From assembly GCA_965153355.1 (NCBI GenBank), contig OZ231126.1, positions 44,454,001 to 44,518,000 on the forward strand: a DNA stretch of 64,000 nucleotides, written 5' to 3'. Origin of the DNA: Flaccisagitta enflata. Taxonomy: Eukaryota. Made by a program: the position numbers and the translations under genes. The notes beneath the pieces are model-generated. The model searched no databases. It saw nothing but the letters and a program-made list of their open reading frames with translations, and was not told where the DNA came from. Positions 8,149 to 64,000 of this stretch are shown here, in pieces. Within the stretch, counting starts at the first letter, position 1. Each line of letters begins with the position of its first letter.

Positions 8149-8393
8149 CTTTGGGCAGGGGTTAAGAAAAGGGGGGCGGTAAGAAGGAAGGGGGGGGGGA
8201 AGATGATGAAGAAGACGAAGAAGAAGGAGACGAGAGAGACGGTATTACGGAATTTCATTGGAACCTATTCATAATCATTCATATTTAGGCATTTTCACAT
8301 GATATGAATCTCATGAATTGGAACTAGAGTCCGGCTGGCCGTGAATCTTTATCTCTTGACAGTTTCTCTTGGTCTTTCTGTCTGTGATTGTCG

Positions 8394-8494
<101 letters not shown>

Positions 8495-8520
8495 CTCTGT
8501 CCAATTTTCCGTTTCCAAAC

Positions 8521-10641
8521 CTGTTGATCATCCTCCTTAAATTCCTGGAACTTATCATCCAGTTTTCTGATTTGCAAAGTGATTTTGGCGTCACTTCTGA
8601 CAAGATGCTTGAGTTCCTCTCTATACGAGTTTAGGATGCGGTTGGCTTGCTCCACGCTTTGGTGGATCTTCTCCACTCTACCGCTTCCCGCCTGCAAATC
8701 GGCGTCGACGGCGGCTTCCCGCTTCTCCGACAATTTGAACATCCTCGTCAAGTCGTTTTCCAACTTCGTCGTCTTGGCGTCCAATCTTTTCGTCGTATTC
8801 TTCGATTGCGTCGTCGCAACATCCAGCTCCTTCGTCAATCCGGCCAAACTCGTCTTCAATCGCTTCAAATGCTGCGCCATGACGCGATCTTTCTCCTTCG
8901 CCGACGCCTCCAAACGCCTCCAAGAATCGACATTCGATTCCGTCGACTTTTTCAAGTCCTTGACGTCCTTTTCCACGGCGACGATTCGGTCGACGCGCTG
9001 TTTGAAGGCCGAATCCAACCCGGCGATGGATGCTTGAAGACCCTCTTCGCGTCGACTCGCCGCGATTTCGCTTTGCCGCAGCGAATCCCTGACGGACCGT
9101 TCCTTGGCTTCCACTTTGACGTTGAGCTTCTCAATTCCGGCCTCCAGTTTTCCGTTCAGAAACAAACTGGCAGATTTGACTTTCTCCAAGATTTCATCGG
9201 ACCATTGCTCCAACTCTCCGCTTCTACTTTGCCCGTCGACGACCCTCTCCACGACTACTCTCCTCTCCTGTCGACTAATTCCGACGTCATCATTGAGCTT
9301 GCTCAACTCAACCTTCAACTTCAACTCTTCGTTGGCATTTTCCAGTTTCTCCAGCCTCTCGAAAACGCGCTTCAGGTCTTCATTTCCGTTCGTTTTCTCT
9401 TCCTTCAACTTCCGGTTCTCATCCTCCAGCGATTCCATCTCGTCGAGACCTTCGCGGACGAGGCGCTTCAAAGCGGAGACCTCGTTCCACAACTCGGTCC
9501 GCTCGCGCAGCACCACGCGCAGCACGTGCTGAAAATCGCGTGAGATCGATGGGAACAACAACTTGGCCGCCAAGTGGTAGTGAGGGTTGGGATGTTGTTG
9601 CATGTTTGGATGTGTGTATTGTCTTGGATTTTGAAGCTGTTGTTTTTCTGGTTCACGTCGTTGTTTTTGTTTTTCCTCGAGTGACGCTTGGGATAGCGAC
9701 GCTGCGTAGGCAGAAGCAGTCGGTAAAGGAGGTGGAGAAGCTGACGAAGCTGACGAAGTTGGAGATTTGGATTTAGAAGCTGAAATAGAGGAGAAGGAGG
9801 AGGCGACGTAGGGAACCTCAGTAGAGAAAGAGTCTAATTTAGTATCTAAAATGGAGGCATCTTCTTCTCCATTTTCGTAGACATACGAACTGACTGAAGA
9901 TGTCTCATTAGAAGAATCGGAAGGGATTTCATTGTTAGCAATCTCTTGATCCATTTCTGATTTCGAAAATGATGTCGCATTTGATGAGTTGAAAGAATGA
10001 GAATTTATCGAATCGAATATTTCAGTCGTCCATTCTGAACCGACTGAAGTAAAGGACATCGTTGAAGCTTCAGTTAAGTCGGCATGTGTTGCGGCAGTAT
10101 CCGATGCGGCATTCACGTTCACTGTTGCAGCCTCTCTAATTGTCTCGTCTGTGGCTTCATCTGCAGTCGTCGTCGTAACTGAGGCACGCAACGCCGTTGC
10201 AGTAGAGGCCTCAGCATCGTCAGCGGTCGCAGTGCTATCGGGGAAGATTGGTAGAGGAGTCGTTGACGCCAATATTAAGAAGTCTTTCTTGGGAGTTGTC
10301 GTTATTGTGCGTTCAGTCAACGCCGATTTCATAGACGGACGAGGAGTAGGAACTGAGAATGAAGTGTGAGTAGGTGTAGAAGGAGGAGGTGAAAAGGAAG
10401 AAGAAGAAGAAGGCGAAAAAGAAGAAGAAGAAGAAGAAGAAGAAGAAGAAGCAGAAGAAGAAGAAGAAGCAGAAGAAGCAGAAGAAGCAGAAGAAGAAGA
10501 GGAAGAAGAAGAAGTAGGCGTAGGAGTGGATGAAGTAGTAGTGGGAGAAGTAAAAGAAGAAGAATCAGCCGCATCGCCATTAGATGATTTATATTGTTTA
10601 GCTTTGCTCAGATAAGCTCGGAAACTACTTTTCTTGTTGCG

Positions 10642-10726
<85 letters not shown>

Positions 10727-10762
10727 TTTCGGTTGTTGTTGTTGTAGTTTTTGTTGTTTTTC

Positions 10763-10843
<81 letters not shown>

Positions 10844-12498
10844 TTGTTGTTGTTGTTGTTGTTTTTGTTGTGGGTCTTTGTGCTGGTGGTCGTTGCTACA
10901 GTCGTGCTTAACGTTTCCGTGGTCGCCCAGTTGATATTGCGCGTGGTCGTCGTCATCGGTTTCACCTTTTCCGTTGCACCTATCGTCTTCGTTTGCTCCT
11001 TCATTTGTTGTCTTTTGTTTTTATTCTGTTTGGCTTCGTTTTTGTTGTTCCTTCTCTTCTTGGTATTTTGTTTTCCTACATTGTTTTTGTTTTTCTCATT
11101 TTGTTTTCCTCCGTCGATCGTTTCCTTTGTTACTTTCTTTTTAGCGCCTTCTTTGCGTCGAATCGATTGCAACATCTTCAATTTAGGCTTCGGCTTGGAG
11201 TCGTTCCTTGACTTGGTTTGTTTGTTTTGTTTCACGATGTTCGCTTTGATTTCATCAAGATTCCCTCCATCGGATGAACCATCCGCGATGCTCCTAGTTA
11301 CCTCATTCTTTTGTTGTTTTGGCCGAATAGGCACAGATTCGTTTTCATTTAGTTCGTTTCCAGGTGTCTCTTGTTTACCTTTCACAAGAGCAGGTACGTT
11401 TTGTTTCTGTTTGATGCGAGAAGGTTGTTTTTGTTTTTGTTCCGCAGGAGCAGGTTCTTTTTGTTCCTGTTTCGTTAGAGCTTGTTCCTTTTGTTCCTTG
11501 TTCGTTAAAGCGGGTTTTTGCTCTTCGATTTGTTTCATGTGCTCAGCCACATTGTTTTCTTTTCCTTCCTCCTGTTTTCGATTTTGGACCAGAGCGTCCA
11601 CATTTTTACCCTCAGTTGGCTCAACGTCCTCCTCCCCTTTATTACCTCTCGGCATGGCTATCTTCAGTTCCTCTGCTGCTGCGTCGCTTCCCGCGCTAGC
11701 GCTTTCGCCGATTCTCTGTCCCTTTTCATCGTCGTCTTCAACCCCCTCCTCCAATTTTCCATTCAGATCTCCTTCATCGAGTTTCCCATTTGGATTCGCC
11801 TCTTTGACCTCTTTTTTGGCATCAATCACGCTCGTGGAAAACAAGTAATTGTTTTGCTTCAACATTTTCTTCGGGACTCGAATTCCGAATGATCTTCGAG
11901 TTTGAATGTTACCGCCGGAAATCCAAGGAGCGTCGGCGGTAATTCCTTTCGCCGCCAAGTCCGCTGCGTGAGCGTCGGCGTCGACCGTAGAAGCATCGAT
12001 AACACCCGCGCCGATTTTCGTGTAAGCGTCGCCATTCGCATCCACGGCGACGTTTAAGCCCGCGTCGACGTCAGCATCGCTCACTCGATACGCGGAAGGA
12101 TCATCGCCTTGAAGTTGGTAATCGAGATCATCGTCCGTTTTCGCCGCCTTCTCCTCCTCCTTATCGGCGTTTCTCGCGGCTTCCTCGACATCGTCGAAAC
12201 TGCCAACGCTTTGTCGACTGCTTCTCGGATCGTCACCCGCGGGAAGCAGTGATCCAACGACCGACCTTAAAAGTTCCGTTAAGTCGGCACGAAAGAGAGA
12301 AGTCAAATCTCTGTTCCATGGATTGAATGAGGAATAAGAGGTGGGAGATGAGGGAGAGGAAGAAGAGTAGGGAGAGTCTGACGAGGCTAGGGAGTTCGGG
12401 GAGGAGGAGAAGGAGGAGGAGGAAGAGGAGTCGGCGCGACGATCATATTCAACGATGAGCCGGCAGAGGGAATCGGAAGCGTCTGTCACCGGTTCGCA
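8521..12498 (-). CDS. Chitin-binding coiled-coil protein, exon 2 (3978 nt)
   Basis: Acceptor (CT)n-ccag|TGC supplies Cys5 and Cys6 of the CBM14 domain; open frame of about 1.3 k codons with acidic, Lys/Gln-rich, poly-Asn, Ser/Thr mucin-like and heptad regions; donor CAG|gtttgg at 8521/8520. Confidence 0.88.
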
Positions 12499-12501
12499 CT
12501 G

Positions 12502-12565
<64 letters not shown>

Positions 12566-12854
12566 AGAAGAAGAAAGAGATGAGAAACAAGAAACAGCAG
12601 AAAGGAGGGCGGAAAGGCAAGACAGACAGAGACAGAAAGAAAGTAAAGAGGTCAAACAGAAGAAAAGAAGAAAAGAAGAAGAATGAAGAAGAAGAAGAAG
12701 AAAAGAAGAAGACAGACAGGGAAGATATTGAAGAGAATGAGGCAGCAGTAGAAAAGAAGAAGAAGGGAGGGAATGAAACTGGCAGGAAGAAAGAAAGACA
12801 GACAGACAGACAGAAAACAAAGCCAAAAGAGAATGAGAGCTGAAAGAAGAAGAA

Positions 12855-20837: not shown

Positions 20838-21990
20838 CCGATGGAGGCACCTTTTGGTGGGCGCGCCTGCACCTGAGTATTGGAGTTAAAGCGCCGAAAC
20901 TCACTCTAGGGTGTAGGTCTCAAACTGATGACCAGAAATTGGATATGTTAAAATATTCTAAAGAGAACTAAATTCTTTTCTAAATATGGCAAAGTACTTG
21001 ATACCCCTTCATGGTGACCTATCATCCCATGATATATCTTCTTGAAGATGAATTCCCATTCCTCCAATCATTAAGATTTCCCTTTAACACAAATTAGTAT
21101 AAATTGTCCATATTCCCACCCCCATAGTTTAATTGAAAGGAGGGGTAACAGCTAGGGAGTCGGATCCCCATAGTTCTGTTTTTTCAATTAGATTTAACCT
21201 TTGCTGAATTGACTACCCCTGTCAATGCCAGAAGTCAGCACTAACAACAATCCCTTAACCTAATAGCTATAATGGAGATTCATAATTGTTTGAGAGATAA
21301 GACAAAAGTCTTGTTTTCTGCATAAAAATTACTTATCCAAAGGTTTTGAATTCCAATAACCACTAAACTTAGGTCGTACCTAAAATTGGAGACGTAAGTA
21401 TATGAGTGGAAGCATATACTATACAGAAATGAGTAGCTTATGAATGTTTTATTTTACTTTTATATGTCAAGATTTTTTTCAATAACATTTTCCTATTTTG
21501 TAAGATACTTTTTGTTGCACATTTCATAAGATATCGGAGTGCGTGATGTCCTTTCTCATGGAGCAAAATTGTAACTAAATCCTTCTATCGACCACGGATA
21601 ATGCGCCGTTATTTAGGGATGCAGGTGTGAGAATATGGATAACATGATAAATATCTCGAACTGGAGGTACAGTTATAGATCATCATCCGCCATCCGTCAT
21701 CACCATCATCAGCAGCATCTTATCATCAGCTATCATCATCAGCCATCATCATCATCATAATCATCATCATCATCATAATCATCATCATCAGTGACTTCAG
21801 TGACTTCAGTGACATCAGTGACTTGTTAATCATCGATTTGGTTTCAATATGTTTGCATCGTGGAAATCAAATCTAATCAGAAAGTTGTTGCCGCTGCCGA
21901 CCTGATACTCTCTCTCTCCGTCTCTCTGTCTCTCTCTGTCTCTCTCTGTCTCTCTCTGTCTCTCTCTGTCTCTCTCTGTCTCTCTCTGTC

Positions 21991-22073
<83 letters not shown>

Positions 22074-22788
22074 GTACTCTATAACAATGCTTACAGCATG
22101 GTGGCTGTTGAGCTTAAAAAAAAAGAGTAGATGATAAAAGCAGAATGAAAAGATGGTATTAACTTTTATAATCATGGGCTCTTTAAACATTTTTGTGAAT
22201 CTTTACTTTTTAGTTGCGGACAAGACACTCTATAAAAGACTTTGTCTGTCCGTCGGTCCGTCCGTTGGTCTTTCGGTCTGTGGTGATCGAGTCGAAAAGT
22301 GTGAAAACGTGCATTTATGATGCTGCAGAGCAGTTATGATTGTTTGAGTGAGTGAACATGGGGTGGGGGAGAGTCGAGAGTTGCACGCCTCTGCCCCAAC
22401 GCCCGCGTCACTTGTTAATTCAATCAGGTTTATCTCATTTACCTAATTGCTTCTAAGCGGTGGTGTATGATTTTTGATGAGTGAAAGGATATTAAAATCT
22501 TATCATTTATTGTGATACTACTAATTAACAACATTGTAATAACTATTTCAGCCTTGAACCGAGCTTCAAATAAGGCTTAACAGCATTGAGCCTCAGCAAA
22601 AAATGATCCCGTTGTTAGAAATATAACGTTTTTAAAATATAACGAATTCGAGAAATACAAGTTAACTGATATTTCTCCTCATTCTCACGGTGAGGGAGAA
22701 GAAAGTGTTTCATTACTACCAACTCGCAATCACCACATCGCTCTGGAATCAAAAGGTTATCTCAAACAAACCAATGCGTTATTCGTCT

Positions 22789-22890
<102 letters not shown>

Positions 22891-23169
22891 GCCACTTTGT
22901 TTTCCATCATCCATGGATATTCATCCCTGCCGCTGCCGCTTTCACCTTCCCATATCCTAAGTTGAGGATATTCGTGTTGCTGCTGCTCACACTCTCGTTT
23001 TGTGGTCAGTCGCCCAAGATCGTATGGAAGGTTGTTTTTGATCATCGTTTGTAACATCGGATGATAAGCAATTTCGTTACGAGTTGTATTTCTACGTGGA
23101 ATAACGTCGATGCCTCACCGATAAGAAACTTTCCACGCTGAGCCTGGTAAGTTCATGGGAGTGTGTGTG

Positions 23170-23209
<40 letters not shown>

Positions 23210-23459
23210 TACCGAATAAACGATAAACGAATATTGATTTGCCGCGATGGTGATCGATCGAGGGCCCAAAAGCGGTGGTTCAATAACGACGCCATTCCAA
23301 CGTTTTCTCTCCTTCGTATCAATTAAAACGGCTCAATCCTTGCTCATAGATCAGCAAATGAAATGAACGGCGGCAAGTCTGTCATAAGAATTAAGTTTTA
23401 TCTCGCATATACCGCTGTACAATAAATTCCATGATGTGAAATATCAATCACGAGTTAAA

Positions 23460-23576
23460 ATGTCCAAACCACGTAAAAAAGTAAAAACCGAGAAGCATAC
23501 CGCTACGTCAACAGGAGGGGCAACTACATTTACCACCCCACCAGCCTCTGAAAAACAACAACAACAACAACAACAA

Positions 23577-23615
<39 letters not shown>

Positions 23616-26541
23616 CCTGTTCAGCTGGCAGTTCCAGCGCCAACCATGCAGCAGTTATCTAATGCACAAATGCCACTTCAATTGGTGCAATTTCCCAGTG
23701 GCCAACAAGCTTTCATGCCCGTCAATCAACCCATGCTTGCACCTCAACTGCAACAGCAACTCCTGATGGTCAATGGATCAAGTACACAGCAAGCCAAGAC
23801 AGTTCCTCAGCAACCGGTCGTTCCGATGCCGCAAATCATTTCCGCAAACGACGGTTTGACGATGCAGCAACTTCAAGCCGCGCCGGCGGCCATGAGTTTA
23901 TTCCCTCCTGGTGTTAGAATGCCTTACATGCCGGCGCCGATGTTTTCATTGCCGACAAATGGCATTCAACAACAACAATCTTTGCCACAACAGCAATTGC
24001 TGCAGCAGATGCAATTGCCCATTCCAAAAGTTCTTCCGACGGCCTCATTGGTGGCGTCAACGGCAGCTACCACGCCAACCACGAAGCCCATGGCCACCAC
24101 GCCTTCAAAACAACAACAACAACAACGACCGACATCACCAATATCCCCCTCCTCTTCGTCATCTTCCTCCATTTCCGATAGCGACTCTGATTCGTCGACG
24201 TGTCCCGGCTGTGAAAACCAATCAGAGGTCGCCAATCATCAATTAGGGTATTTTTCCACTGTTTCTCAAGTCAAAGATGCTTTGTCGAGATTATCGGGAA
24301 GTCCACCCTCTGGCATCACTGTGCAGATCGTGGAAGAAGGCGATCAAAGCGAATGTGCCGCTGCGGCGGCAAATGCGGCGGCTGAGGCGGCGAAGTTCAT
24401 CCTTAGAGGATCAGAGGACGTCGTGGCGTTGGTTCAGCGCAACGTCGATCACGTATCAGATTGTCGGCGCTCTTTCTCGCTCGCCGGCGTTGTTGTTTGG
24501 GACGCTGTTTCCGAGAAGCTAGTCATTGACGCAGCCGCCAATCTCGAACGCGCCGTCGACTCGAGCGGATTCTGCTTCACCGACGCTCTCAAGTTTTGTC
24601 ATTGCGGAAATTTGCCTCTTTTCAAAAGCTTCTTAGTCGGCTGCTCTTTGGATGTAGAGGATAGTCAAGAAGCAGTGGACGAGAAAGAGGATAACAAAGG
24701 ATTCCATTGCGCCTTCAAGGACAAACCTTTTGTCGACAAAGTGCCGTCGACGTTCGGAGGCGAGGCGGTGGCCAAGTCGGTCGCAGATGACGTGGATTGC
24801 ATCGCCGATCAGTTGTCGACGTTGTCTTCGCTGACGCTGCCGGCGGCTGCGTTGCGGCGTCACGCGGCGTTGCGCGAATCGGCGTTGGAATGTAGTTTGG
24901 GAACCGCGTCAAAATTCGCCGGAAGAATCTTCTCGTCGGCGATCGTGGAAATGCGAGGATCGACGCATCGGCGGAAAATTCAAAGACCGACGATCGGTTC
25001 CGCGGCGGCGATTGTTTATTTAGGAAAAGGGGAATCTAAACAGATGTTGCCACAATTAACCTTTGTGGAGGAGAAACAAGGAGGGGGAGGAGGAAGAGGA
25101 GGACAAGATAGAGGACCAATGGTAGGCGTCGCTTTAGAGAGGCGCGCTGTATTTTTGACTCGCGCCGATTTTTGGCGTTCTTCAAGTTGCGATGACACTA
25201 CCGGTTTCGCGTTGGTGTTTTACTGCGAATCCGGACTGAATAAGAGAAATCACGGTAGTAACGGGATTAACAACAACGGATGTCATAAAGAGAACAATGT
25301 CATTCTGGGAAGCGAAACGAAACCCCCGGTAAATGGAATAACAACGGCTTTAGATAGTCATTACACGATGAAAATGTCGACATCAGAGATTCTGCCACCG
25401 CCGCCGCCGCTGCAACAACAGCCACCACCAACACCACAGCCGAGAGCTGTAACGGCTGATGATATCCTGGGTCAGTGTATGGAGACGCTGTTTGGTGACT
25501 CTGCAGAGGATTCCGCCTTGAAGATTTGCGAAGAAGGCGAGAAGGGCGGAGATGATGACGAAGAGGAAGATGCTGACGATGATGAAGAGGATGATGACGT
25601 AGATGTTGACGTCGTCACTCCGGAAATAGACGAAGAAACCACCGTCACCGCCGCATCTCTTGTCAGTCAACAAAATGCTTCCCAAGCGCAGCAGCAACAA
25701 GAGCAGCAAATGCAGCAGCAGCGTCTGCCACATCTTCAGCCAATATTGGGATTTCCACCCAACGCCGCAGCGGGATTGAATGGTTTTCCAATTCCGACTA
25801 CCACTATCGACCGAAATCAAGTTCTCTCGGTCTTGCCGTATTTCCAAAATGGCGCCATGAATCCTGGAAACCTTCTTGCTCAAGGCACCAATATCATCGC
25901 AAATGCTAATCTCAATCAAGGAAACGTCCATTATATCAATCCGCTTCATATAGCTGTGACCGCCACGACTGCACCGACGACGACAACAATGACCACGACG
26001 ACGATGCCATTGACGACAACGGCGGCTTCTGTGGTACCTGGATCCACCGTGATTGCTTCCTCTAGCATTGCCGTAAACACCGCGACCGTTCAAAATGGAG
26101 TTAAAGATTTAGCCCGTCCGATGATAGAAGATATTTCATCGCCAGAAGAGAGCATTTCGCCCCCCGTTGGGGAAACGACGTCGAACACTGACGGCGACGT
26201 GAACAAAAGGGCCAATTCTGTTGCGAACTTGAATGGAAAATCATCTGAACCCGACGTCACATTAAAGCGGACAAAAGAGTCAACTGCCGCTTCCATCCTA
26301 GAGGATGCGACACCGTCGACACAAACTTCGAAATCCAATAACAAGATTCAGCATTGTCCTTACTGCGGAAGAGGCTTCGAATATGCCGGAAATCTGAGAC
26401 GTCATGTGACTAAATTACATCCGGGCTGCGAAGTTCCCGGAAAAAGCACCAAAATACGCTCCAACGGTGGAAATCTCGAAGCTTTCGCGCCGGCGAAAAA
26501 ACAAAAGCTCAATGGAAACGTTGAAACCGGAAAAATGCCTG
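23460..26541 (+). CDS. TET-like pseudoenzyme / C2H2 / C-clamp protein, exon 1 (basic N-terminus, poly-Q, TET-like domain, acidic region, C2H2 finger 1)
   Basis: First in-frame ATG after TAA at 23385; KPRKKVK NLS-like; TET-like motifs at 24201-25256; C2H2 CPYCGRGFEYAGNLRRHVTKLH at 26355-26420; donor CCTG|gtaaac (phase 1) followed by microsatellite intron. Confidence 0.88.
24201..25256 (+). other. Divergent animal-type TET Cys-rich + DSBH domain (approx. aa 248-599), predicted catalytically inactive
   Basis: Collinear matches to human TET2 recalled from memory: HQLG/THLG, AKFILR/AKWVVR, VVVWDAV/ILVWEGI, CHC..SFLVGCS/CAC..SFSFGCS, HCAF/GCKF, ECSLG..GRIFS/ECRLG..GRPFS, QMLP/HVLP, VGVA/VAVA, FALVFYCESGLNKRNHG/ISLVFYQHKSMNEPKHG. 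Confidence 0.8.
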
Positions 26542-26577
26542 GTAAACCTGTGATTCTAACTGCTTTCTTTCTTTTTT

Positions 26578-26655
<78 letters not shown>

Positions 26656-26664
26656 CTTCTGTCT

Positions 26665-26763
<99 letters not shown>

Positions 26764-26943
26764 TTTTGGTGAGTTTTGCTTCCCCAACTTTTTTGTTTTT
26801 ATTTTTCCTCTGCCTCGACCTGTTTTATTTATATGTGTCCGTCTGTCTACCTACACCCCTCCCAATCTTCCTTATTCTTATCTATCTGTCAAATGACACT
26901 CCTATCTTGCTGTCAACTGTCACTTTTTTTTTCACCTCTTCAG

Positions 26944-27899
26944 GCTATACCATCGTTCGACTGAGTTCCGACAGTCAACAGACAACGCCGTCACTCGTCA
27001 AATTCGAACCCTCAGAAACACCGCATTCTGATTCGTCAAGCTCAACTCCTCCCATCGTCCAATCAGATTCTCCGCTCATGACTTTGACCGCAGCGGCGCT
27101 TTCCACCGCCGAAACGTCATCGCTCGTCAAGATAGAGACTAACGGTATCAGCGGTGTTGGCTCGTCGATATCTTCTCTATCCAACGGCTCGACAGCAACA
27201 TCCGCTTCCTTTCCGTCTACTACTATTGTACCGCCACCTCTCATTAAGGCTCCAACTATATCCTCATCAGCCTCAGCGGCAACTAACTCCCCCTTGTTCG
27301 TGGTGTCAAATGGCGTGAAACCCGCCGTCATGCCTCCGATGTTTCAATTGGTGATGGCTTCATCCGCATCTCCTTCAATAACGAAACCCGTCTCAACTAC
27401 ATCTAACGGCCTACCATCGAAAGCGACTCCAATTCTTATCGCTTCTATCAACACGTCAACGCTAAACTCAACTGCTTCGTCCGCCCACGGCGCTCCAGAA
27501 GTCGTCGACTCTCTTATCAACGTTCCTGCAGCCGCGACTGCACCCGCCAAAATCCTCATCACGCCAGCGAAAAGTACATCCGCCAAATCCGTCGTCAAAT
27601 CTCCCGGGGTGGGCGCCGCCGCGACGCCAAAAGTCATGATGTTGCCAAACTCAAAGCAGCCTTCAGCTTCCTCGGCCTCCTCCCCACCATCCTCCTCCCC
27701 TCCTTCCTCATCTTCTTCGCCCGCCGTCGGCATCGTTCTTCCGTCGATGAGTGATCCCGAGAAAGACGCGATGATTCTGCGGCATCTTCAAGAAGAGTTG
27801 CTCAAGCATCGATCGAAAAACGCCACCTCGCGCGGCAAAAGGGAATCGGGCATTGATAAGAGACTCATCGCGGAATATCTGGAAACGTACAAGAAACAG
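26944..27899 (+). CDS. TET-like / C-clamp protein, exon 2 (Ser/Thr/Pro-rich, helical C-terminal part)
   Basis: Acceptor tttttcacctcttcag|GC restores Gly in phase 1; donor AAACAG|gtttgt in phase 0. Confidence 0.85.
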
Positions 27900-27925
27900 G
27901 TTTGTACTTAAATAGCCTTGTTTTA

Positions 27926-28020
<95 letters not shown>

Positions 28021-28302
28021 GTTTCATGATGAAATCAGAATGCGGTTGTTGGTAATTGATATTGTTGTTAGGTCATTATTAGTCTTTTCTTCTTCTTCAT
28101 TAGTTGCCACAGTTTTCGTACGGAGTATTGCATTTCCTCTGTCGTCGTTGTAGTTGTTAGTTTTTTTATTGTTTATAATCTCGTTGCCGTTTCTTTATGG
28201 CTTATGCTCTCATTGCTTTCCGATATTCCACAATCACAATTTTAAATAAATGTAACTGAAAAGGGGTTTTCAACTTTTCTGCAAAATATTCCTCTCTAAA
28301 AG

Positions 28303-28782
28303 GTCTTGGTTCCTATGGCCGCCCCGGACATAATCGGCGTCGACGACTATAACAAGAATCGCTGCGAAACTTGTGGGCGCGTCATCGTCGGCCCTCCGGA
28401 ATTGCTGGCCGCTCACGTCAGGGAAGCCCACAACGTCGTCGAAAAGGAGAAGATGGGCAAGAAATGTCGAGCGTTATTCGGCATCCTGAGAGTCGTTGAG
28501 TGGTGCAGACTGTGTCAACTGAAAAAGAAATGCGAAAGAGCTTCCAAGTACGAGGAAGAGATGATGTTGATGACGACGAAAACTACACCGGTAAAAAGTG
28601 GGGACAACGAAGAGAGAGTTGGTGACGTTGCGGGAGTGACTTCAAAGGACAGCGACACTGGAAACGATGCGCCAAAAGGAAAATCACCAACGTTTGTCTC
28701 TATGCCTATAAATGCCGTAAAATGTGAAGTTTTAGCGCCAGACGTGAAACTGTTGAAGGGAGGTGGTGCAAAAGGGTGTTAA
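28303..28782 (+). CDS. TET-like / C-clamp protein, exon 3 (atypical C2H2 finger 2 + C-clamp)
   Basis: Acceptor cctctctaaaag|GTC in phase 0, in frame with ORF 28306..28782; CETC-x13-H-x4-H at 28363-28431; KKCRALFGILRVVEWCRLCQLKKKC at 28459-28533; TAA stop. Joined CDS 4518 nt. Confidence 0.85.
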   Translation, partial: VLVPMAAPDIIGVDDYNKNRCETCGRVIVGPPELLAAHVREAHNVVEKEKMGKKCRALFGILRVVEWCRLCQLKKKCERASKYEEEMMLMTTKTTPVKSGDNEERVGDVAGVTSKDSDTGNDAPKGKSPTFVSMPINAVKCEVLAPDVKLLKGGGAKGC

Positions 28783-33787: not shown

Positions 33788-35333
33788 CAGAGCGATCAGA
33801 CAGACAAGGAGGTACGGAAGGAGGTACAGAGGTGGAGCGAGTGTAAGACTGAAAGACAGGGAGTCACTCTGGAAACCGTAAGGTAGAGACCGACTGAAAC
33901 GGGAAGTACGTAAGAAAAAACACGAGACAAAAGAAATAAACATGGAGATAGAGACAAAAAAGATATCACCTGTGAGTGACTACACTTTTTGGGCAGCGGC
34001 CCCAAAGTGCCGATGTCCTGTAAGACACAAGGGTGAGTTTCCAGACATCTGTCCGTACATACGTACATCCATTCCCCCCAGGGCTACTCAGGCCCCTCTT
34101 GGACCTCAAATCAGTCCTCTCAGGCCCCAAATCTGCCTTCTCAGGCCCCAAATTAGCCTTCTCAGGCCCCAAATTAGCCTTCTCAGGCCCCAAATTAGCC
34201 TTACTAGACCCTACATCAACCCACTCAGATAAAAAATTAGTACTCTCAGGCCTAAAATCGAGGAGGGCAATCAAGGCCAAATCCTTAAGTGCGTCCTCGC
34301 ACTTCTATGAGAGGTCATGTCCGTCGGTTGGTCGGTCGGTCGGTCGCTCGATGGGTCGGTCGGTTGTTTCATTCATTCATTCATTCATTCATCAAAAACG
34401 TTCATTCACAAGTTCTTAATCAAGCGAGGCGTACTTATTGGCCTTAACTTGGCCTTGTTTGAAAATGAGGGCGGTGAGCTCCCTAACCACTTAAGGCTGA
34501 ATCGGACAGCCCCTTCTAACTAGAGTGGTTTTTGAATATACTGCAAAATGAAAGTTTTCTTAGGCCTGATTTGATCTAATTTTCATCACTCTTCATTTCT
34601 TTTTATGTCATCTTTTAATACAATCTATGATTGTAAATTTTAAAAATCTTAGAGTAAGAATACCTGTCGGTGGATCCATCTGTTACACTTTGCCTTTTCA
34701 GCGTTTATGGGAAGTTTTGGGGTTACTGCTCCTGCCCAACTGCTTGGCTGGTCTATTTCATCACTGCCCCTGCCCATTCACATGTCACTTGGGTAGCGGT
34801 GTATCCGGCCTTGTCATTATTCTTTTATATTTCTAAAAATATCAAAACAGGAAATAAAAAATGCAGTCTTTTTTTATTCCTAGAATAATTTTCATAATTA
34901 GTTGTTTTATTCTTTTATAGAATTTCAATATTGCTTTATTTGGAATAAGAAAACAAGCCCGATCGGGCAAATATGCATCCTCTACTTATCTCTATGTAGA
35001 AAGAAATCCATAGTATTTGCATATTGCAGTTTTTATCATCAACATCGCTTTTAATGGTTAAAAAATACATCGTTCTAGGAATAAACAAACTAACAAAAAA
35101 TGGATTTCTTTGATGAAATACATAACTGACAAAAACTGTATACTCTATATTGGCAAAAGACCAGATTTTTATGAGTATTTGCAAACAATTTCATAGGATT
35201 ATATATACAAAAAAATGAATTCTGGATGAGGGGGGATGGGGGCAGAATCCAAGCAGTTAGAATTAGAGATGTGGGGGAGGTTGTTATGTAACTCAAGAGA
35301 TGTGAGTACGTATCTAAAAATGATGGGGGGATG

Positions 35334-47130: not shown

Positions 47131-49188
47131 CTTAGAAAAATAGTTAACAAAATAAAGAAGTAAAAAACAATTCTCGAGATGGTTCGGAAGTGACATTGAA
47201 AAAGACATGAATTTTATTCCTCGCCACGACAGATAAGTCTACAATGAACAAGGTCATTAGACCTAAGTCGCGTGCATCGACACTTTCAAAAAAAGTCAGG
47301 CAGACAGACAGACAAACAATTTTTTTTTTCAAAAAGACATTTAAAATGGCTGTTAACTGCACAAAGTTCCTCCTCTACCCATCTGAAATAATGAACCTCA
47401 CTCTTTTAATTGCTTTATTTACCTTTGATTAATTTCTTTTCTTGCTTTGGCTGATCAAAATACTTGTCTGAATGGGTTATCCAATAAGGATTCCAGCAGA
47501 GCATTTTTTTCTCTTTTCAGCCTAAGGAGTGACAGACTTTTCTAATTTTCAATCAAGAAAAAAATGATCTTGAAAAAAAAATCAAATCTGGCTAACATTA
47601 AGACAATATAAGCTTCACCTAAGCAACGAGTGTTCTGAGAATTCTCCTATGATTTAGACATAACAAACACTTTAAAAAGCCTTTGAAACAGTTTTGTGAT
47701 GGACCGACCAACGGACCGACGGACTGACAGAAAAGTGGCTTATAGAGTTGCGTAGCACGCGACCAAAAAAGGCCATGTGTTTAAAAATGCAAATTTTTGT
47801 ACTTCTATGCAATGATATAATTTCACCTAATAAGAGTGAGATGACAAAGTATAATTTTAGATGAAAATCTTCTTTTTAGTCGCGTGTACGCGACTCTACA
47901 ACCTGCTTTGTTGGTCCGTCCATCCGTCGGTCCATCCATCGGTCTGTCCGTCCATCCATCCGTCCGTCCGTCCATCACACTTTACTTTTTTTGGGTTTTT
48001 GGGCTGCGGCCCCGAAGGGGACGAAGTCCTGTAGAACACAGGGGGAATCTGTCCGTCCGTCCGTACATCCGTACGTCCGTCCGTCCGTCCCCCCTGCCCC
48101 ATCCTCAGGGCTTCGTCTCCTTTGGGGCCCAAATCCAAACTGGCCCAAATCCAAACAAAATGGCCCAAATCCAAACAAAATGGCCCAAATCCAGGCAAAA
48201 TCGGCCAAATCCAGGCAAAATGAGCCTAATCCAGGCAAAATGGCCCAAATCTGGCTAGAAAACCTGAATTCTGGCCTGAGTTCTATTTTTTGGGCCCCTT
48301 AAACATAGATTCTGGCTTCTAAAACCCACACTCTAACCTTAGAGAGCCAGAATCCGACCTCTGGGACCCAGATTCTGACCTCAAAGACCTAGGTTCTGGC
48401 CCCAAAGACCTAAATCCTAGCCTCAGAGACCCAAATCCTGAGCTCAGAAACTCAAATCCTGGCCTCTAAGACCAAGAAGTTGGTCTCTGAGACTCAGATT
48501 CTGGCCTCAGAGACCCGTCTCCTGGCCTGCTTCTCCCTCAATTTAACCTACAAACTATTCAAGAATGGCAAGGGTACCATTGTCCATATACTGCCTTTTG
48601 TCATTTCTCCATGGTATTCAATGAAAATCTGAATAACAGGGCATCCTGGACAGAAGGAAGGCAGACAGAAGGACAGGCGGACGGACAGACGGATGGACAG
48701 ACGGACAGACGGACAGACGGACAGACGGACGGACGGACAGATTCCCCCTGTGTTCTACAGGACTTCGTCCCCTTCGGGGCCGCTGCCCTGCTCCCTCTCA
48801 ACTTTCTACTTTCAACTTTACACTTTCTACTCAAGCAGGGCACGGGTACCGCTGACCACTTACTGCCTTTGGGCTGCTATTGTGGTCTGTTGCCTCACTG
48901 CTCCTGCCCAAATGATGAAGTGACCTCAAATACAGCCCCTGCCCACCCGCATGCGACTAGGGTCCGGCTTTATTTCTAACTTTTTTCAATACAATATGTA
49001 CAACAAATCTGTATATCAGAGGTTATCTATGCAAAAATCTATTATTTAACATTTAAAAAATGTTTTTTCAACAAAAAAAATTAAAAATGATAATATAGAA
49101 AATATCTAGAGAATTGAAATGAAGCATGAAATTTCTTCATCCCATACACTGCATCCTATGGAGATACAAAATAGAATAACTCAACCTA

Positions 49189-54227: not shown

Positions 54228-56891
54228 GCCGAGTTTTTTTCCCCGACAGAGGGCGTTCTTTAAAAAAAAGATGTTTTTTGGAAGCGGCGTTATTTTGGGG
54301 TAGCGGCGCCTGTTTCTCGTCGGCGCGGCGGCGGAGCGATCGGCGTCTTCCGGTGGCGTCTATAGCGATGATGGAGGAGGAGGAGGAGGAGGATGAGGGG
54401 GAAGGAGAGAGTGGATAAAGGAGAGCAGCAGAAGAAGAAGGAAAGATAATCATCTTTGGATCCATACTGACGCCAAGCGAAAGGATGAAGCAGAAATAGA
54501 TCGTTTAAAAGTGAAGAGATGATTAAAAAGAAGAATGGGAACCAGTATGCAAGTATGCAAACAAGAACAAGGCTAGATACACGGCTACCCCAGTCGTAAG
54601 CGGATTGGCGGGGCCGTATTTGAGGTCATTATAGCATACTGGCAGGAGCAATGAGATCAAAGAACGCAAAAAGTAATCTGTGACGGACGGACGGACGGAC
54701 AAAGCAAGGTGTAGAGTCTCTTATCACGCGACTAAAAGTAACTGAGCGTGCTAGGTAACAAGCATGGCAACAGGTATACTTAACTACATTTTTTTGCAGA
54801 AAATGCAAAAAAAGACAAAAACAGAAACAAAAACAAAAGCAACAAGTGAGATAAGACATGATGAAATAAAGAGAAATTTGAAAATTTGATCTTTTGTTTC
54901 CTCGGCGGTGGGGGATCAGAGAAGGAATTCGTTGGGAGGAGCCACTAATTCTATGGCAAGCTCCCGCGCGAGCGTTTCCTCTTTCGTCAGAACATTCCAC
55001 AAATTCTCTTCCTCCCGCTCCCAGCTTCCCTCTGCTTCAGTCGCCGCCCCTTCGCTTTTTTCTTCCCTCCTTCCCCTCATTTTTTCCAATTCACCTCTCT
55101 ATAGTCTCTTCCCCTACCTCATCTCGACATCTTCCCTCCCACTCCCTCCTAGCTCCTAGATCTCTCCTTGCCTTTCCCTCCTCTGCCTCATTTTCCCTCT
55201 CCTGCCTCCAACACATCTTTCTCACCAAGCCTCTAACTCCCTCATAGCTCTTTCCTTTTCTTTCCTTTCTCAACCATGTGTGCCATCTGTCGCTTCTACA
55301 GAAATCCTCTGACCGTCCCCTCCCCTCCTCCCTTGTCTTCGCTATCTCCTCCACCCTCATCTACCTTTTCTCCCCTATCCCTTGGGCCTGTTCAAATAAA
55401 CAAATATGAATTGGCACATGACTTGGTGCAGCTTGGGGGGGGGAAGGGGTGATAAGATGGGTTCTGGGGAGCCCTGGGTGAAGGACGGACGGGGAAGAGA
55501 GAGAGTCGCGTGGGGGTGAAGGGTTCAGACGAGATTTATTTTGCCTTATTTGTCTCGCCTAGATTTCACGTTGCCAAATTTTGGCACTCATTCTCTTAGT
55601 TGATTTTCGATTCCAAAGTTGAGCCCATAGACATTCCTCTTCTCCATTAGCTGTATATTTGTTTCTGTCCGATGTTTCTATTCTTATTTCTGTCGGTTCC
55701 TGTGCCTGTTTCTTTTCTTCTCTCTCTTCTCTTCCTCCCTCTTTCTCCCTCTCTAGAGCTTATCAATGGATAGACAAAAATGTTCATTAAAGCTTAGCAT
55801 AGTAATCGACGATCATTCATTTTACTGCCAAATCGTAACGGACTGCTTTAGGCTGATTTCCGACACCTACATGTCTGTATACATGTCCCTCTCTAGGAAA
55901 GTAATGAATTCATTGAATGCCCGAAGATCACGCCTGAAGTACGTATTCGGGTATCAGTTTAGATTATCTTAGATTCACTATTGTATGATGAACAGGATTA
56001 CATCGAATCTGATGCGATTTTTCCAGATTCTAAACATAACAATTAACCCGGGGTTGCAATATCGTCACGGATGGGTGGGCAAGGCATACACCCCCAGCAC
56101 AATAACAGCAGTAAAAATGCGCATTCTCTCACTTTTTAACTCACGTGATGGAATAATCAACGGACGGACCCATGGACCAATGGAATAATGGACATTACTT
56201 TTTATCGAGTCGCGGATCCGCGACTAAAAACAAACGCCAAGAATTCCACGTCAACCTAATATTTTCCCGACCCAGAAGCAAATCCTTCCCAAAAACTAAT
56301 CTACACCTCTGTTTATCCATTACCCGAATTAGCATCACGTTTCGCTCCGTATTAAAAAGCAAATCGCATTAAATTTAGTGAAAAATAAAAACTTCCCCTT
56401 CTCCGTTCTCAGTCTTCTTTCTCTACTCCACCTCCACGACTCCACCTCAACGGCTCCTCCTCTTGGTCCTCCTCCTTCTCCCCTTCCTTCTGCTCCTCAG
56501 CTAAAGTTTAATTTGCCTCCCGAAAAAAGTAGGAAATTAAAAACTGCTTAATTCGTCACCAAATATATTTGACAAGACGGACTCGGATTGGCTGAGACGG
56601 TTTCGTTTAGACTACACTGTGCTTTTTTATTGGCTGAAAGAGAAAAATAAGAAAGAAAAAACAGAGAAGAAGCTGAAAATTCCTTCCGAAAAATTAGTAA
56701 AATGTCTCGGTACGTTTGTCTTTATTAGTGACTGTTTCGGTCTGTCTCTTTATCTGTTTTTCTGCCTCTGACTACCAATGTCTGTCTCAATTTGCACCAC
56801 GGTGTTTGTTTAACTCTCTGTAATTTCTGTTTATCAGCTGGTCCGTATTATGTCCATCCGTCTCCATCTATCCGTCTGTCTGTCAGTCAGT

Positions 56892-60930: not shown

Positions 60931-62049
60931 AAATAGGATAGAAAGCAAGAAAAGGAGAAAAATTATGTAAAGGAAGGAGCAAGATGGCAGTAAAAGACAA
61001 AAAAACTCGTGCAAAAAGCAATCTCGGAATCTCGGAATCTCGGAAAGGCGATTGTCACAAAAGCTGTAATGGCAAAAGTTGGGGAAAGTTGAAGTCTTGA
61101 CGAACGGAAAAAAGACCATCTTCTTTGAATGAGGTGAATGAGGAGAAAGAAAGAGAGAAAAAGAAAAGAGATAAGATCGAAAGCGAGAAGGAAAAAAAAG
61201 AGAAGTAGAACAAGTGACGCGGGGTCACAATATCGTTGCGGTCGGATTGACAGGGGCGAACAACCCCCATCCACACCCTCAACTATCCTACACTTACGCA
61301 CACAGATTATCACAATAGTAGCTCCATAAATGCGCGTTTTCATACTTTTCAGCTTGATCACCATGATGGACCAATGGACGGACGGGCCAACGGACCAACG
61401 GACAAAGCCTCTTACAGATTTGCGTGTCCGCATCTAAAAAGGAGCAGCCGGTGAGGCAGTATGAGAGAAAATTGCGAAAAGAAAGACGTGGACGAAGTAT
61501 GACATGACAGAAGTACGAAGTGAGAGAGGTAAAAAGCTTTAAAAACATAAAAAGAGTGGACTTAAGTGCCACAAAAGCAAATTGCCGCGCGGCGCGACTC
61601 AGGAAAGAGTAGGAGTTTGAATGCGCTTGCGCACAAAAACAGAAGGGAAAAGTGAAGATGAAATGGAATACATAGATGGGGCATTTAGAAGAAGTGGAGA
61701 AACACTCAACTGCGCTCAGGAATGACTCAAGTTGAGTACAAGTTGTCGCGATCACGTGACCATCCTGATGGCCATCATTTCCCTTTCCATTGACTCTGTC
61801 CATTCGTCCTCTCAGAACTTTTGCGAAGATGAAGACTTCCCCCACCAGCCGGTAGTACCGTCTACATCTCCATCTCTGTCTCTCGTCTCGCTCTCTCACT
61901 CTGTCCCTCAATCTTGATCTTTCGCTGTTTCTTAAGTATTATTTCTCGTCCACTGACTGTTTTCTATCTCTCTTTGTCTTAATCATAAGCTTGTCATTTC
62001 TGTTAGCCTGATTATCTGTCTCTGTATGTCATTCTTTCGTTCTTTCGTT

Positions 62050-63016: not shown

Positions 63017-63249
63017 AGTGAGAGATACATTTGAAATTTTCAACTAAAGAACAGAATCGCACGGCCTCAAATAGATAAGCCGGGATTCAGATTCTGGCTG
63101 GCTAATGTTACGCGAATAACGTCATAACCGTCAATATAGATAATATTGATACTGTCTGTTTTCATTTTCTTAACTTGTTGTGTTCCACGATAGTGGAACA
63201 CTAAGTATTCAAAAATTCTCCGTCCATCCCAGTTTTTTCCTATGTAAAA

Positions 63250-64000
63250 ATGTATGTCACGCAACCCAGTTTTCTCCAATGTATGTCACACAGCCCAGAA
63301 TTCTCCGATGTATGTCACACAGCCCAGAATTCTCCGATGTATGTCACACCACCCAGTTTTCTCCGATGTATGTCACACCACCCAGTTTTCTTCCATGTAT
63401 GTCACACAGCCCAGAATTCTCCGATGTATGTCACACCACCCAGTTTTCTCCGATGTATGTCACATAGCCCAGAATTCTCCAATGTATGTCACACCACCCA
63501 GTTTTCTCCGATGTATGTCACACAGCCCAGAATTCTCCAATGTATGTCACACAGCCCAGAATTCTCCGATGTATGTCACACCACCCAGTTTTCTCCGATG
63601 TATGTCACACAGCTTAGAATTCTCCGATGTATGTCACACCACCCAGTTTTCTCAGATGTATGTCACACAGCCCAGAATTATCCGATGTATGTCACACCAC
63701 CCAGTTTTCTCTGATGTATGTCACATAACCCAGAATTCTCCAATGTATGTCACACCACCCAGTTTTTTCCGATGTATGTCACACAGCCCAGAATTCTCTG
63801 ATGTATGTCACACCACCCAGTTTTCTCCGATGCATGTCACACAACCCAGAATTCTACAATGTATGTCACACAACCCAATCTTCTCCGATGTATGTCACAC
63901 AGCCCAGAATTCTCCAATGTATGTCACACCACCCAGTTTTCTCCGATGTATGTCACATAGCCCAGAATTCTCCAATGTATGTCACACCACCCAGTTTTCT
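63250..64000. repeat. 29-bp tandem minisatellite with two alternating variants (runs off window end)
   Basis: ATGTATGTCACACAGCCCAGAATTCTCCG and ATGTATGTCACACCACCCAGTTTTCTCCG mostly alternate. Confidence 0.95.

Follow-up and report, generated by a model that had tools for sequence, protein, structure and literature searches.

A 64,000-nt stretch of the Flaccisagitta enflata genome (GCA_965153355.1, contig OZ231126.1, positions 44,454,001 to 44,518,000 of the forward strand; hereafter the window, with all coordinates counted from its first letter) carries on its plus strand a predicted gene whose product appears to combine a domain related to the TET 5-methylcytosine dioxygenases with candidate DNA-binding zinc modules. 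Splicing of three open segments (23460-26541, 26944-27899, and 28303-28782) at GT-AG sites of matching phase would give a continuous frame of 1505 aa. These coordinates and junctions had been proposed in an initial annotation made from the sequence alone, and as statements on the sequence they are correct. The low-complexity features that it listed, namely a nuclear localization signal (NLS)-like start (KPRKKVK), a poly-Q tract, an acidic tract, and the S/T/P-rich exon 2, are likewise all readable from the translation.

Exon 1 (23460..26541) comprises 1,027 codons plus 1 nt, from the ATG at 23460, which opens MSKPRKKVK, to the donor CTG/GTAAAC (slashes mark splice boundaries). It encodes the NLS-like start, a Q-rich region, the TET-related domain (termed the pseudo-TET domain here), a conserved motif, the acidic tract, and a first C2H2 zinc finger. 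Intron 1 (26542..26943; 402 nt; GT-AG; acceptor TCTTCAG/GC) contains (TATC)n and (CT)n microsatellites and is open in the same frame without a stop, so that a prokaryote-style gene caller would read through it, into what would be an implausible hydrophobic repeat. Exon 2 (26944..27899; aa 1028-1346) is rich in S, T, A, and P and continues the exon 1 frame for 318 codons to the donor CAG/GTTTGT. Intron 2 (27900..28302; 403 nt; GT-AG; acceptor CTCTAAAAG/GT) contains a (GTT)n microsatellite, and its retention would end the frame at the TAA at 27909-27911, three codons past the donor. Exon 3 (28303..28782) is terminal, with 159 codons plus the TAA at 28780-28782, and its frame opens 3 nt before the acceptor. 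At the level of plus-strand frames, one is thus open over 23388-27911 and another over 28300-28782. The long microsatellites are not confined to the introns: runs of (CT)n/(GA)n, of (TATC)n, and of (GTT)n occur beside the gene and also fill its two introns (21830-22200, 22790-22890, 23160-23210, 26570-26755, and 27925-28020).

Homologues of the predicted protein proved to be few. An exhaustive HMMER search over 1.84 billion representative sequences returned four clusters, one represented by P0001 (54% identity) and the other three by fragments (83 to 92% identity), and no TET was among the matches. The family therefore appears to be tiny, lineage-restricted, and nearly absent from public protein space, in line with the lineage restriction proposed earlier. 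P0001, the only distant homologue, begins at the same Met as the window protein and can be aligned with it as far as GKM/GKL, just before the exon 1 donor; past this point its predicted protein continues with unrelated residues and then a stop. That the similarity ends at the exon 1/intron 1 boundary speaks indirectly for the first donor.

The pseudo-TET domain occupies 24201..25259 (aa 248-600) according to hhalign comparison with TET profiles. To obtain TET sequences, a short degenerate pattern modelled on a motif conserved in TETs was run against metagenome contigs, yielding 25 loci (L001-L025) in which the motif-bearing frames were plainly TET exons. L008, which is exceptional among these loci in looking like a transcript, contains a 1,015-aa open frame matching Pfam Tet_JBP with an E value of 6.6e-48, and it was used to retrieve 120 TETs from insects, ticks, molluscs, and vertebrates, the majority bearing names given by their sources. 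In a BLASTP comparison of the window domain with the L008 TET, two collinear high-scoring segment pairs were found, one of 151 residues in the Cys-rich region (E value of 0.005) and one at the terminal LVFY..LN...HG motif (E value of 0.028). The window domain and its relatives, P0001 and the fragments, were then combined into a query profile and compared by hhalign with 101 TET cores in a trimmed alignment, giving a probability of 95.1%, an E value of 3e-8, and a score of 65.8. As a control, 121 column shuffles gave a mean score of 17.6 (SD of 3.7; maximum of 31.7); reversal of the query gave 15.3.

The best-matching stretch was the Cys-rich part of the domain (24240..24647; aa 261-396), where query positions 14-149 corresponded to TET columns 19-159. 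Two further collinear matches fell in the C-terminal strand (E value of 9.7e-4) and in the ...EC.LG stretch (E value of 0.14). The C-terminal strands of the jelly-roll remnant lie at 25119..25256 (aa 554-599, from MVGVA to LVFYCESGLNKRNHG), and the C-terminal 63 residues aligned alone gave a probability of 88.6% and an E value of 2.7e-6. When the target was instead an untrimmed alignment of 20 named TETs, a probability of 95.0% and an E value of 3.8e-8 were obtained over 219 columns, the match beginning with the Cys-rich region and reaching the first jelly-roll strands. The Cys-rich region and the double-stranded beta-helix were thus both recognized by hhalign, and in the order of metazoan TETs, a layout that points to an animal gene. 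An hmmsearch --max run with a TET hidden Markov model (HMM) that included low-complexity insert columns gave weak per-domain matches at the same two places; control exons gave similar E values, and the result was not used. The profile-profile data identify the central domain as a genuine TET homologue, albeit a very distant one. The limits of aa ~248-599 given in the initial annotation proved right, and the homology that it had suggested was supported at a probability of 95% (E values of 3e-8 to 4e-8).

We next consider the catalytic site. The iron ligands of TET2 are described as H1382, D1384, and H1881, with R1383, H1386, and N1387 adjacent (PMC6244454), and these positions identify the H-[RK]-D-x-H-N stretch in the alignment. 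Residues at the catalytic columns were counted by global hhalign mapping onto the 101 aligned TET cores. Column 249 is His in all 101 TETs and Arg in both the window protein (R505) and P0001. Column 251, which is Asp in 99 TETs and Glu in the other 2, is Ile in both (I507 in the window). The degenerate HxD site therefore reads HRRKI (24966..24980; aa 503-507), with the TET His and Asp ligands replaced by R505 and I507. The distal His at column 437, present in 101/101 TETs, falls inside a 7-residue deletion in the window protein, and the same deletion is found in P0001. The Arg at column 452, which precedes the LVFY strand in 101/101 TETs and which we take to be a 2-oxoglutarate ligand, is replaced by G582 in the window and by Asn in P0001. 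Since the segment HRRKIQRP contains neither D nor E, no placement of the alignment restores HxD. Lacking the three Fe(II) ligands as well as the invariant Arg, the pseudo-TET domain is predicted to be unable to act as a 2-oxoglutarate/Fe(II) dioxygenase; the absence of these residues in both homologues supports the earlier proposal of a non-catalytic domain. Each homologue has, by contrast, retained 7 of the 10 conserved TET Cys columns, together with His/Cys at columns 88/90 and Trp at column 102.

The domain is also the best-conserved part of the protein. Identity between the window protein and P0001 was 54% over the whole domain and 62 to 66% in its jelly-roll-like parts, compared with 30% in the Q-rich N terminus and 25 to 26% in the linkers. 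Because the same catalytic-site substitutions occur in both proteins, the loss of the catalytic residues would predate the split of the two, with the domain conserved since. Conservation after catalytic loss is the signature of a pseudo-enzyme rather than of a decaying copy, and the comparison thus indicates that the domain is a maintained pseudo-enzyme under purifying selection. Such selection, combined with retention of most structural cysteines, suggests a folded non-catalytic module.

Outside this domain, the Q-rich N-terminal region (aa 1-247) includes the poly-Q tract at 23553..23615 (aa 32-52). Downstream, the motif ILGQCMETLFGD and, after it, the acidic D/E tract were located at 25464..25637 (aa 669-726) from the translation and the alignment with P0001, and identity with P0001 over aa 661-735 was 52%. 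The short motif itself (25464-25499) is kept in P0001 and in the fragment P0003 and matched no known family. The protein thus has a basic N-terminal patch along with Q-rich and acidic regions of low complexity, which are typical of transcription regulators.

Candidate zinc modules were found on the C-terminal side of the domain. The initial annotation had named two C2H2 fingers, and the two fared differently. The first (26355..26420; aa 966-987) matched Pfam zf-C2H2 with an E value of 0.0018, below the curated cutoff; its four ligands are all kept in P0001, and its pattern arose in 12 of 20,000 shuffles of exon 1. The second (28363..28431; exon 3 residues 21-43, aa 1367-1389) was found as a regular-expression match to C-x2-C-x13-H-x4-H and stands as a pattern only. 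Exon 3 has two histidines, both within this pattern, which was seen in 12 of 100,000 shuffles, and searches against the Protein Data Bank (PDB) gave weak matches to CTCF fingers (E values of 0.45 to 3.6).

Nine residues past the second finger begins the putative C-clamp (28456..28539; exon 3 residues 52-79, aa 1398-1425), which reads KKC-x12-C-x2-C-x2-KKK-C (C-x12-C-x2-C-x5-C). The sole significant PDB match of exon 3 in a phmmer search was to 7dta, the C-clamp of SLC2A4RG, with an E value of 0.0059 and with all four Cys and the KK/KK flanks aligned, in agreement with the C-clamp assigned to this exon at the outset. The four Cys, the spacing of the family, and the basic flanks are all present. 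The Cys spacing occurred in 60 of 100,000 shuffles, the two exon 3 patterns together in none of 100,000, and the C-clamp pattern is unique in the six frames of the window. The C-clamp is described as a zinc-dependent DNA-binding domain in which four cysteines are essential; TCFs use it to recognize RCCG helper sites, and ZNF395, SLC2A4RG, and ZNF704 to recognize sites of the CCGG type (PMC3896468, PMC5339479, PMC11601247). In the latter three proteins, a single C2H2 finger beside the C-clamp is reported to add little specificity (PMC11601247, PMC5339479). On these matches, DNA-binding zinc modules probably form the end of the protein, which would carry one to three of them in all. Apart from the weak zf-C2H2, the Pfam scan matched no family in the predicted protein; in particular, it gave no CXXC domain, and HMG_box had no match at an E value of ≤1 in any exon.

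We favor, as the probable reading of the locus, a nuclear protein of ~1505 aa in which a TET-derived non-catalytic domain is targeted to DNA by zinc modules. Its central 350-aa domain would have descended from the catalytic region of a TET 5-methylcytosine dioxygenase, and the dead domain may have been kept as a folded binding surface, either for DNA or for the partners of TET. DNA targeting would be provided by the first C2H2 finger and, if exon 3 is spliced on, by the second finger and the C-clamp, the latter taking the protein to short GC-rich sites containing CpG. The role would then most likely be that of a sequence-targeted scaffold, or of a competitor presenting TET-like surfaces, with no oxidation of DNA. 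Most likely, the protein binds DNA or chromatin rather than modifying either; its nuclear location, DNA binding, and role are predictions, and it would be a true TET paralog, as proposed earlier, if the same genome has a canonical TET.

Several results weigh against this reading. Pfam Tet_JBP (PF12851), which had been among the expected domain matches, gave no hit at an E value of ≤10 in scans of exon 1 as a whole, of the domain, and of six sub-segments; the other expected matches were obtained, zf-C2H2 at sub-threshold level and the C-clamp through phmmer against the PDB. No TET chain was among the PDB matches to the domain by phmmer or hmmsearch. An AlphaFold2 model of aa 255-605 from a 5-row alignment had a mean predicted local distance difference test (pLDDT) score of 31 and so gave no structural confirmation. 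In a feature search of the ESM Atlas with the window domain, 24 of 30 matches lay in the PF12851-bearing set, a result of low recognition value that serves as a lead only, and a search with P0001, confined to named clusters, gave no usable match. The N-terminal part of the jelly roll aligns weakly when taken alone (E value of 0.14), and the HxD mapping may accordingly shift by 1 to 2 residues. At the other end of the protein, the second C2H2 finger has no Pfam match and is without profile support, no homologue covering exons 2 and 3 was found, and exon 3 matched none of the longer proteins at an E value of ≤10. Finally, in a poly-A RNA run from the same study (~6/100 of the run), 11 partial reads were found, all in the acidic tract, with 0 across any junction. 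PHROGs and phage tblastn searches with the domain also gave no TET match.

The strongest rival concerns the 3' end, where the locus may instead give two products, the pseudo-TET/C2H2 protein ending after exon 2 and 28303-28782 being either a small gene of its own, with its start codon at 28315 (ATG), or a terminal exon specific to some isoforms. The stop three codons past the exon 2 donor would provide such an end, and exon 3 offers an in-frame Met at its residue 5. No transcript was seen to span the junction, at a coverage of the RNA run that is unusable for this purpose, P0001 is known only to the end of exon 1, and the phases of exons 2 and 3 would fit by chance one time in three. On the other side, the exon 3 frame opens just 3 nt upstream of a pyrimidine-rich AG. 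Among the eight possible pairs at this boundary (four GT by two AG), only two are in frame, both of them with the donor at 27900; this donor, CAG/GTTTGT, is the best, is the last before the stop (9 nt), and is the sole one that joins in frame. The 403 nt between the exons are rich in microsatellites with no evident promoter, and the tail that exon 2 would otherwise supply is unremarkable. We infer the exon 2-exon 3 junction from these features and consider it likely that exon 3 belongs to the pseudo-TET gene product, which leaves separate products as a rather unlikely, if serious, alternative.

Less credible is the possibility that the TET-like region is a functionless remnant of a pseudogene or retrocopy, decaying within a low-complexity protein or unexpressed altogether. 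The loss of the catalytic residues would be expected of such a remnant, and no expression was seen in the fraction of the RNA run examined (~6/100). The whole TET-like region (24201-25259) moreover lies within one 3-kb exon, whereas in the canonical TET metagenome loci the motif frames are short open segments of 60 to 233 aa flanked by stops; this arrangement is consistent with the pseudo-TET having arisen from a retroposed TET mRNA. Decay, however, is difficult to reconcile with an exon 1 frame open for 1,027 codons, with retention of 7 of 10 structural Cys columns, and with the pattern of divergence from P0001, which is only 30% identical in the N terminus yet 54% in the domain and 62 to 66% in the most degenerate, jelly-roll parts. 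The identical catalytic-site substitutions in the two homologues also speak for an old loss followed by conservation, and we regard a decaying remnant as improbable. That the domain is still an enzyme, using non-canonical metal ligands or another chemistry, might be argued from the jelly-roll-like parts being the most conserved between the two homologues and from H503 and H598 being conserved and aligned with invariant TET histidines, but with three iron ligands and the invariant Arg missing in both proteins and the distal-His segment deleted, this is scarcely tenable.

Returning to the favored reading, of a TET-derived non-catalytic domain combined with zinc modules, a more specific form of it can be put forward tentatively, and we hold it to be possible but doubtful. 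The locus would encode a dead TET turned into a sequence-targeted chromatin factor, in which the C-clamp takes the part played by CXXC and brings an inert module to CpG-rich DNA. Such a module could sit on methylated or unmethylated CpG sites and leave them unoxidized, in the manner of a natural protector or dominant-negative; alternatively, it could recruit TET partners. In that case it would be, among natural TET pseudo-enzymes, the first to carry a DNA-targeting domain of its own.

Compared with metazoan TETs (Pfam Tet_JBP, PF12851; for example, those named among P0006-P0124), the pseudo-TET domain has the same order and register, in which the double-stranded beta-helix comes after a Cys-rich region, and the same end motif, LVFY..LN...HG. 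It differs from them in lacking the HxD...H triad, the invariant Arg, a Pfam match, and a CXXC domain, and where TETs have a long low-complexity insert, ~30 residues are left here. The zinc fingers here are C terminal of the domain, and the domain lies in one exon. Among the 120 TETs listed, the Pfam domains found beside PF12851 were PF02008, in a minority of the proteins, and PF22936, in one.

The 3' end of the gene resembles a different group of proteins, ZNF395, ZNF704, and SLC2A4RG (Glut4EF in the fly), with which it shares the layout of a single C2H2 finger closely followed by a C-clamp. These proteins are not known to have a TET-like domain. The flanks of the C-clamp found here, KKCRA.FG and KKKC, may be nearer the TCF type than the ZNF395 type. 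In the ZNF395/ZNF704/SLC2A4RG family, the C-clamp is reported to carry the DNA specificity (PMC11601247, PMC5339479), and three conserved regions, CR1 to CR3, are described (PMC5339479). Only the CR3-like C-clamp was found here, with CR1 and CR2 judged through the Pfam scan alone. A four-Cys C-clamp with basic flanks is likewise shared with the E-tail of TCF/LEF proteins such as Pangolin and POP-1, as that tail is described (PMC3896468), but the protein here differs from these in having neither an HMG box nor a beta-catenin-binding domain, as judged from the absence of Pfam matches. The initial annotation knew of no TET plus C-clamp protein, and full-text searches of a limited literature collection found neither such a protein nor a natural TET pseudo-enzyme in metazoans.

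To our knowledge, TET enzymes are the only known active route of 5-methylcytosine oxidation in animals. Their non-catalytic roles are debated, and the debate rests largely on engineered catalytic-dead mutants. If the favored reading is true, a naturally dead yet selected TET domain joined to zinc modules that read DNA motifs of the CpG type would be a natural experiment on what the TET fold does without its chemistry. The locus can be classed as that of a pseudo-enzyme of the TET family with a novel partner domain, and not functionally as a member of the enzyme family. The domain was found by a directed profile-profile test and not by Pfam, HMMER, or AlphaFold2, which suggests that similar TET relics may be overlooked by routine annotation with these tools.

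Elsewhere in the window, an open frame of 1,446 codons on the minus strand (8314-12651) would encode an acidic, Ser-rich protein with charged repeats and had no Pfam match at an E value of ≤0.01. At the far end, on the plus strand (63205-64000), lies a tandem array with a unit of ~29 residues (CMSH.PEFS.VCHT.QNSPMYVT.PSFLR-like) that is open in two frames and runs past the end of the window. A string of the form SVGRSVGPSV or VRPSV... recurs in open frames on both strands (1826-2728, 34024-34416, 47845-48299, 54632-55036, and 60966-61433), and its presence at several places in both orientations suggests a dispersed repeat element.

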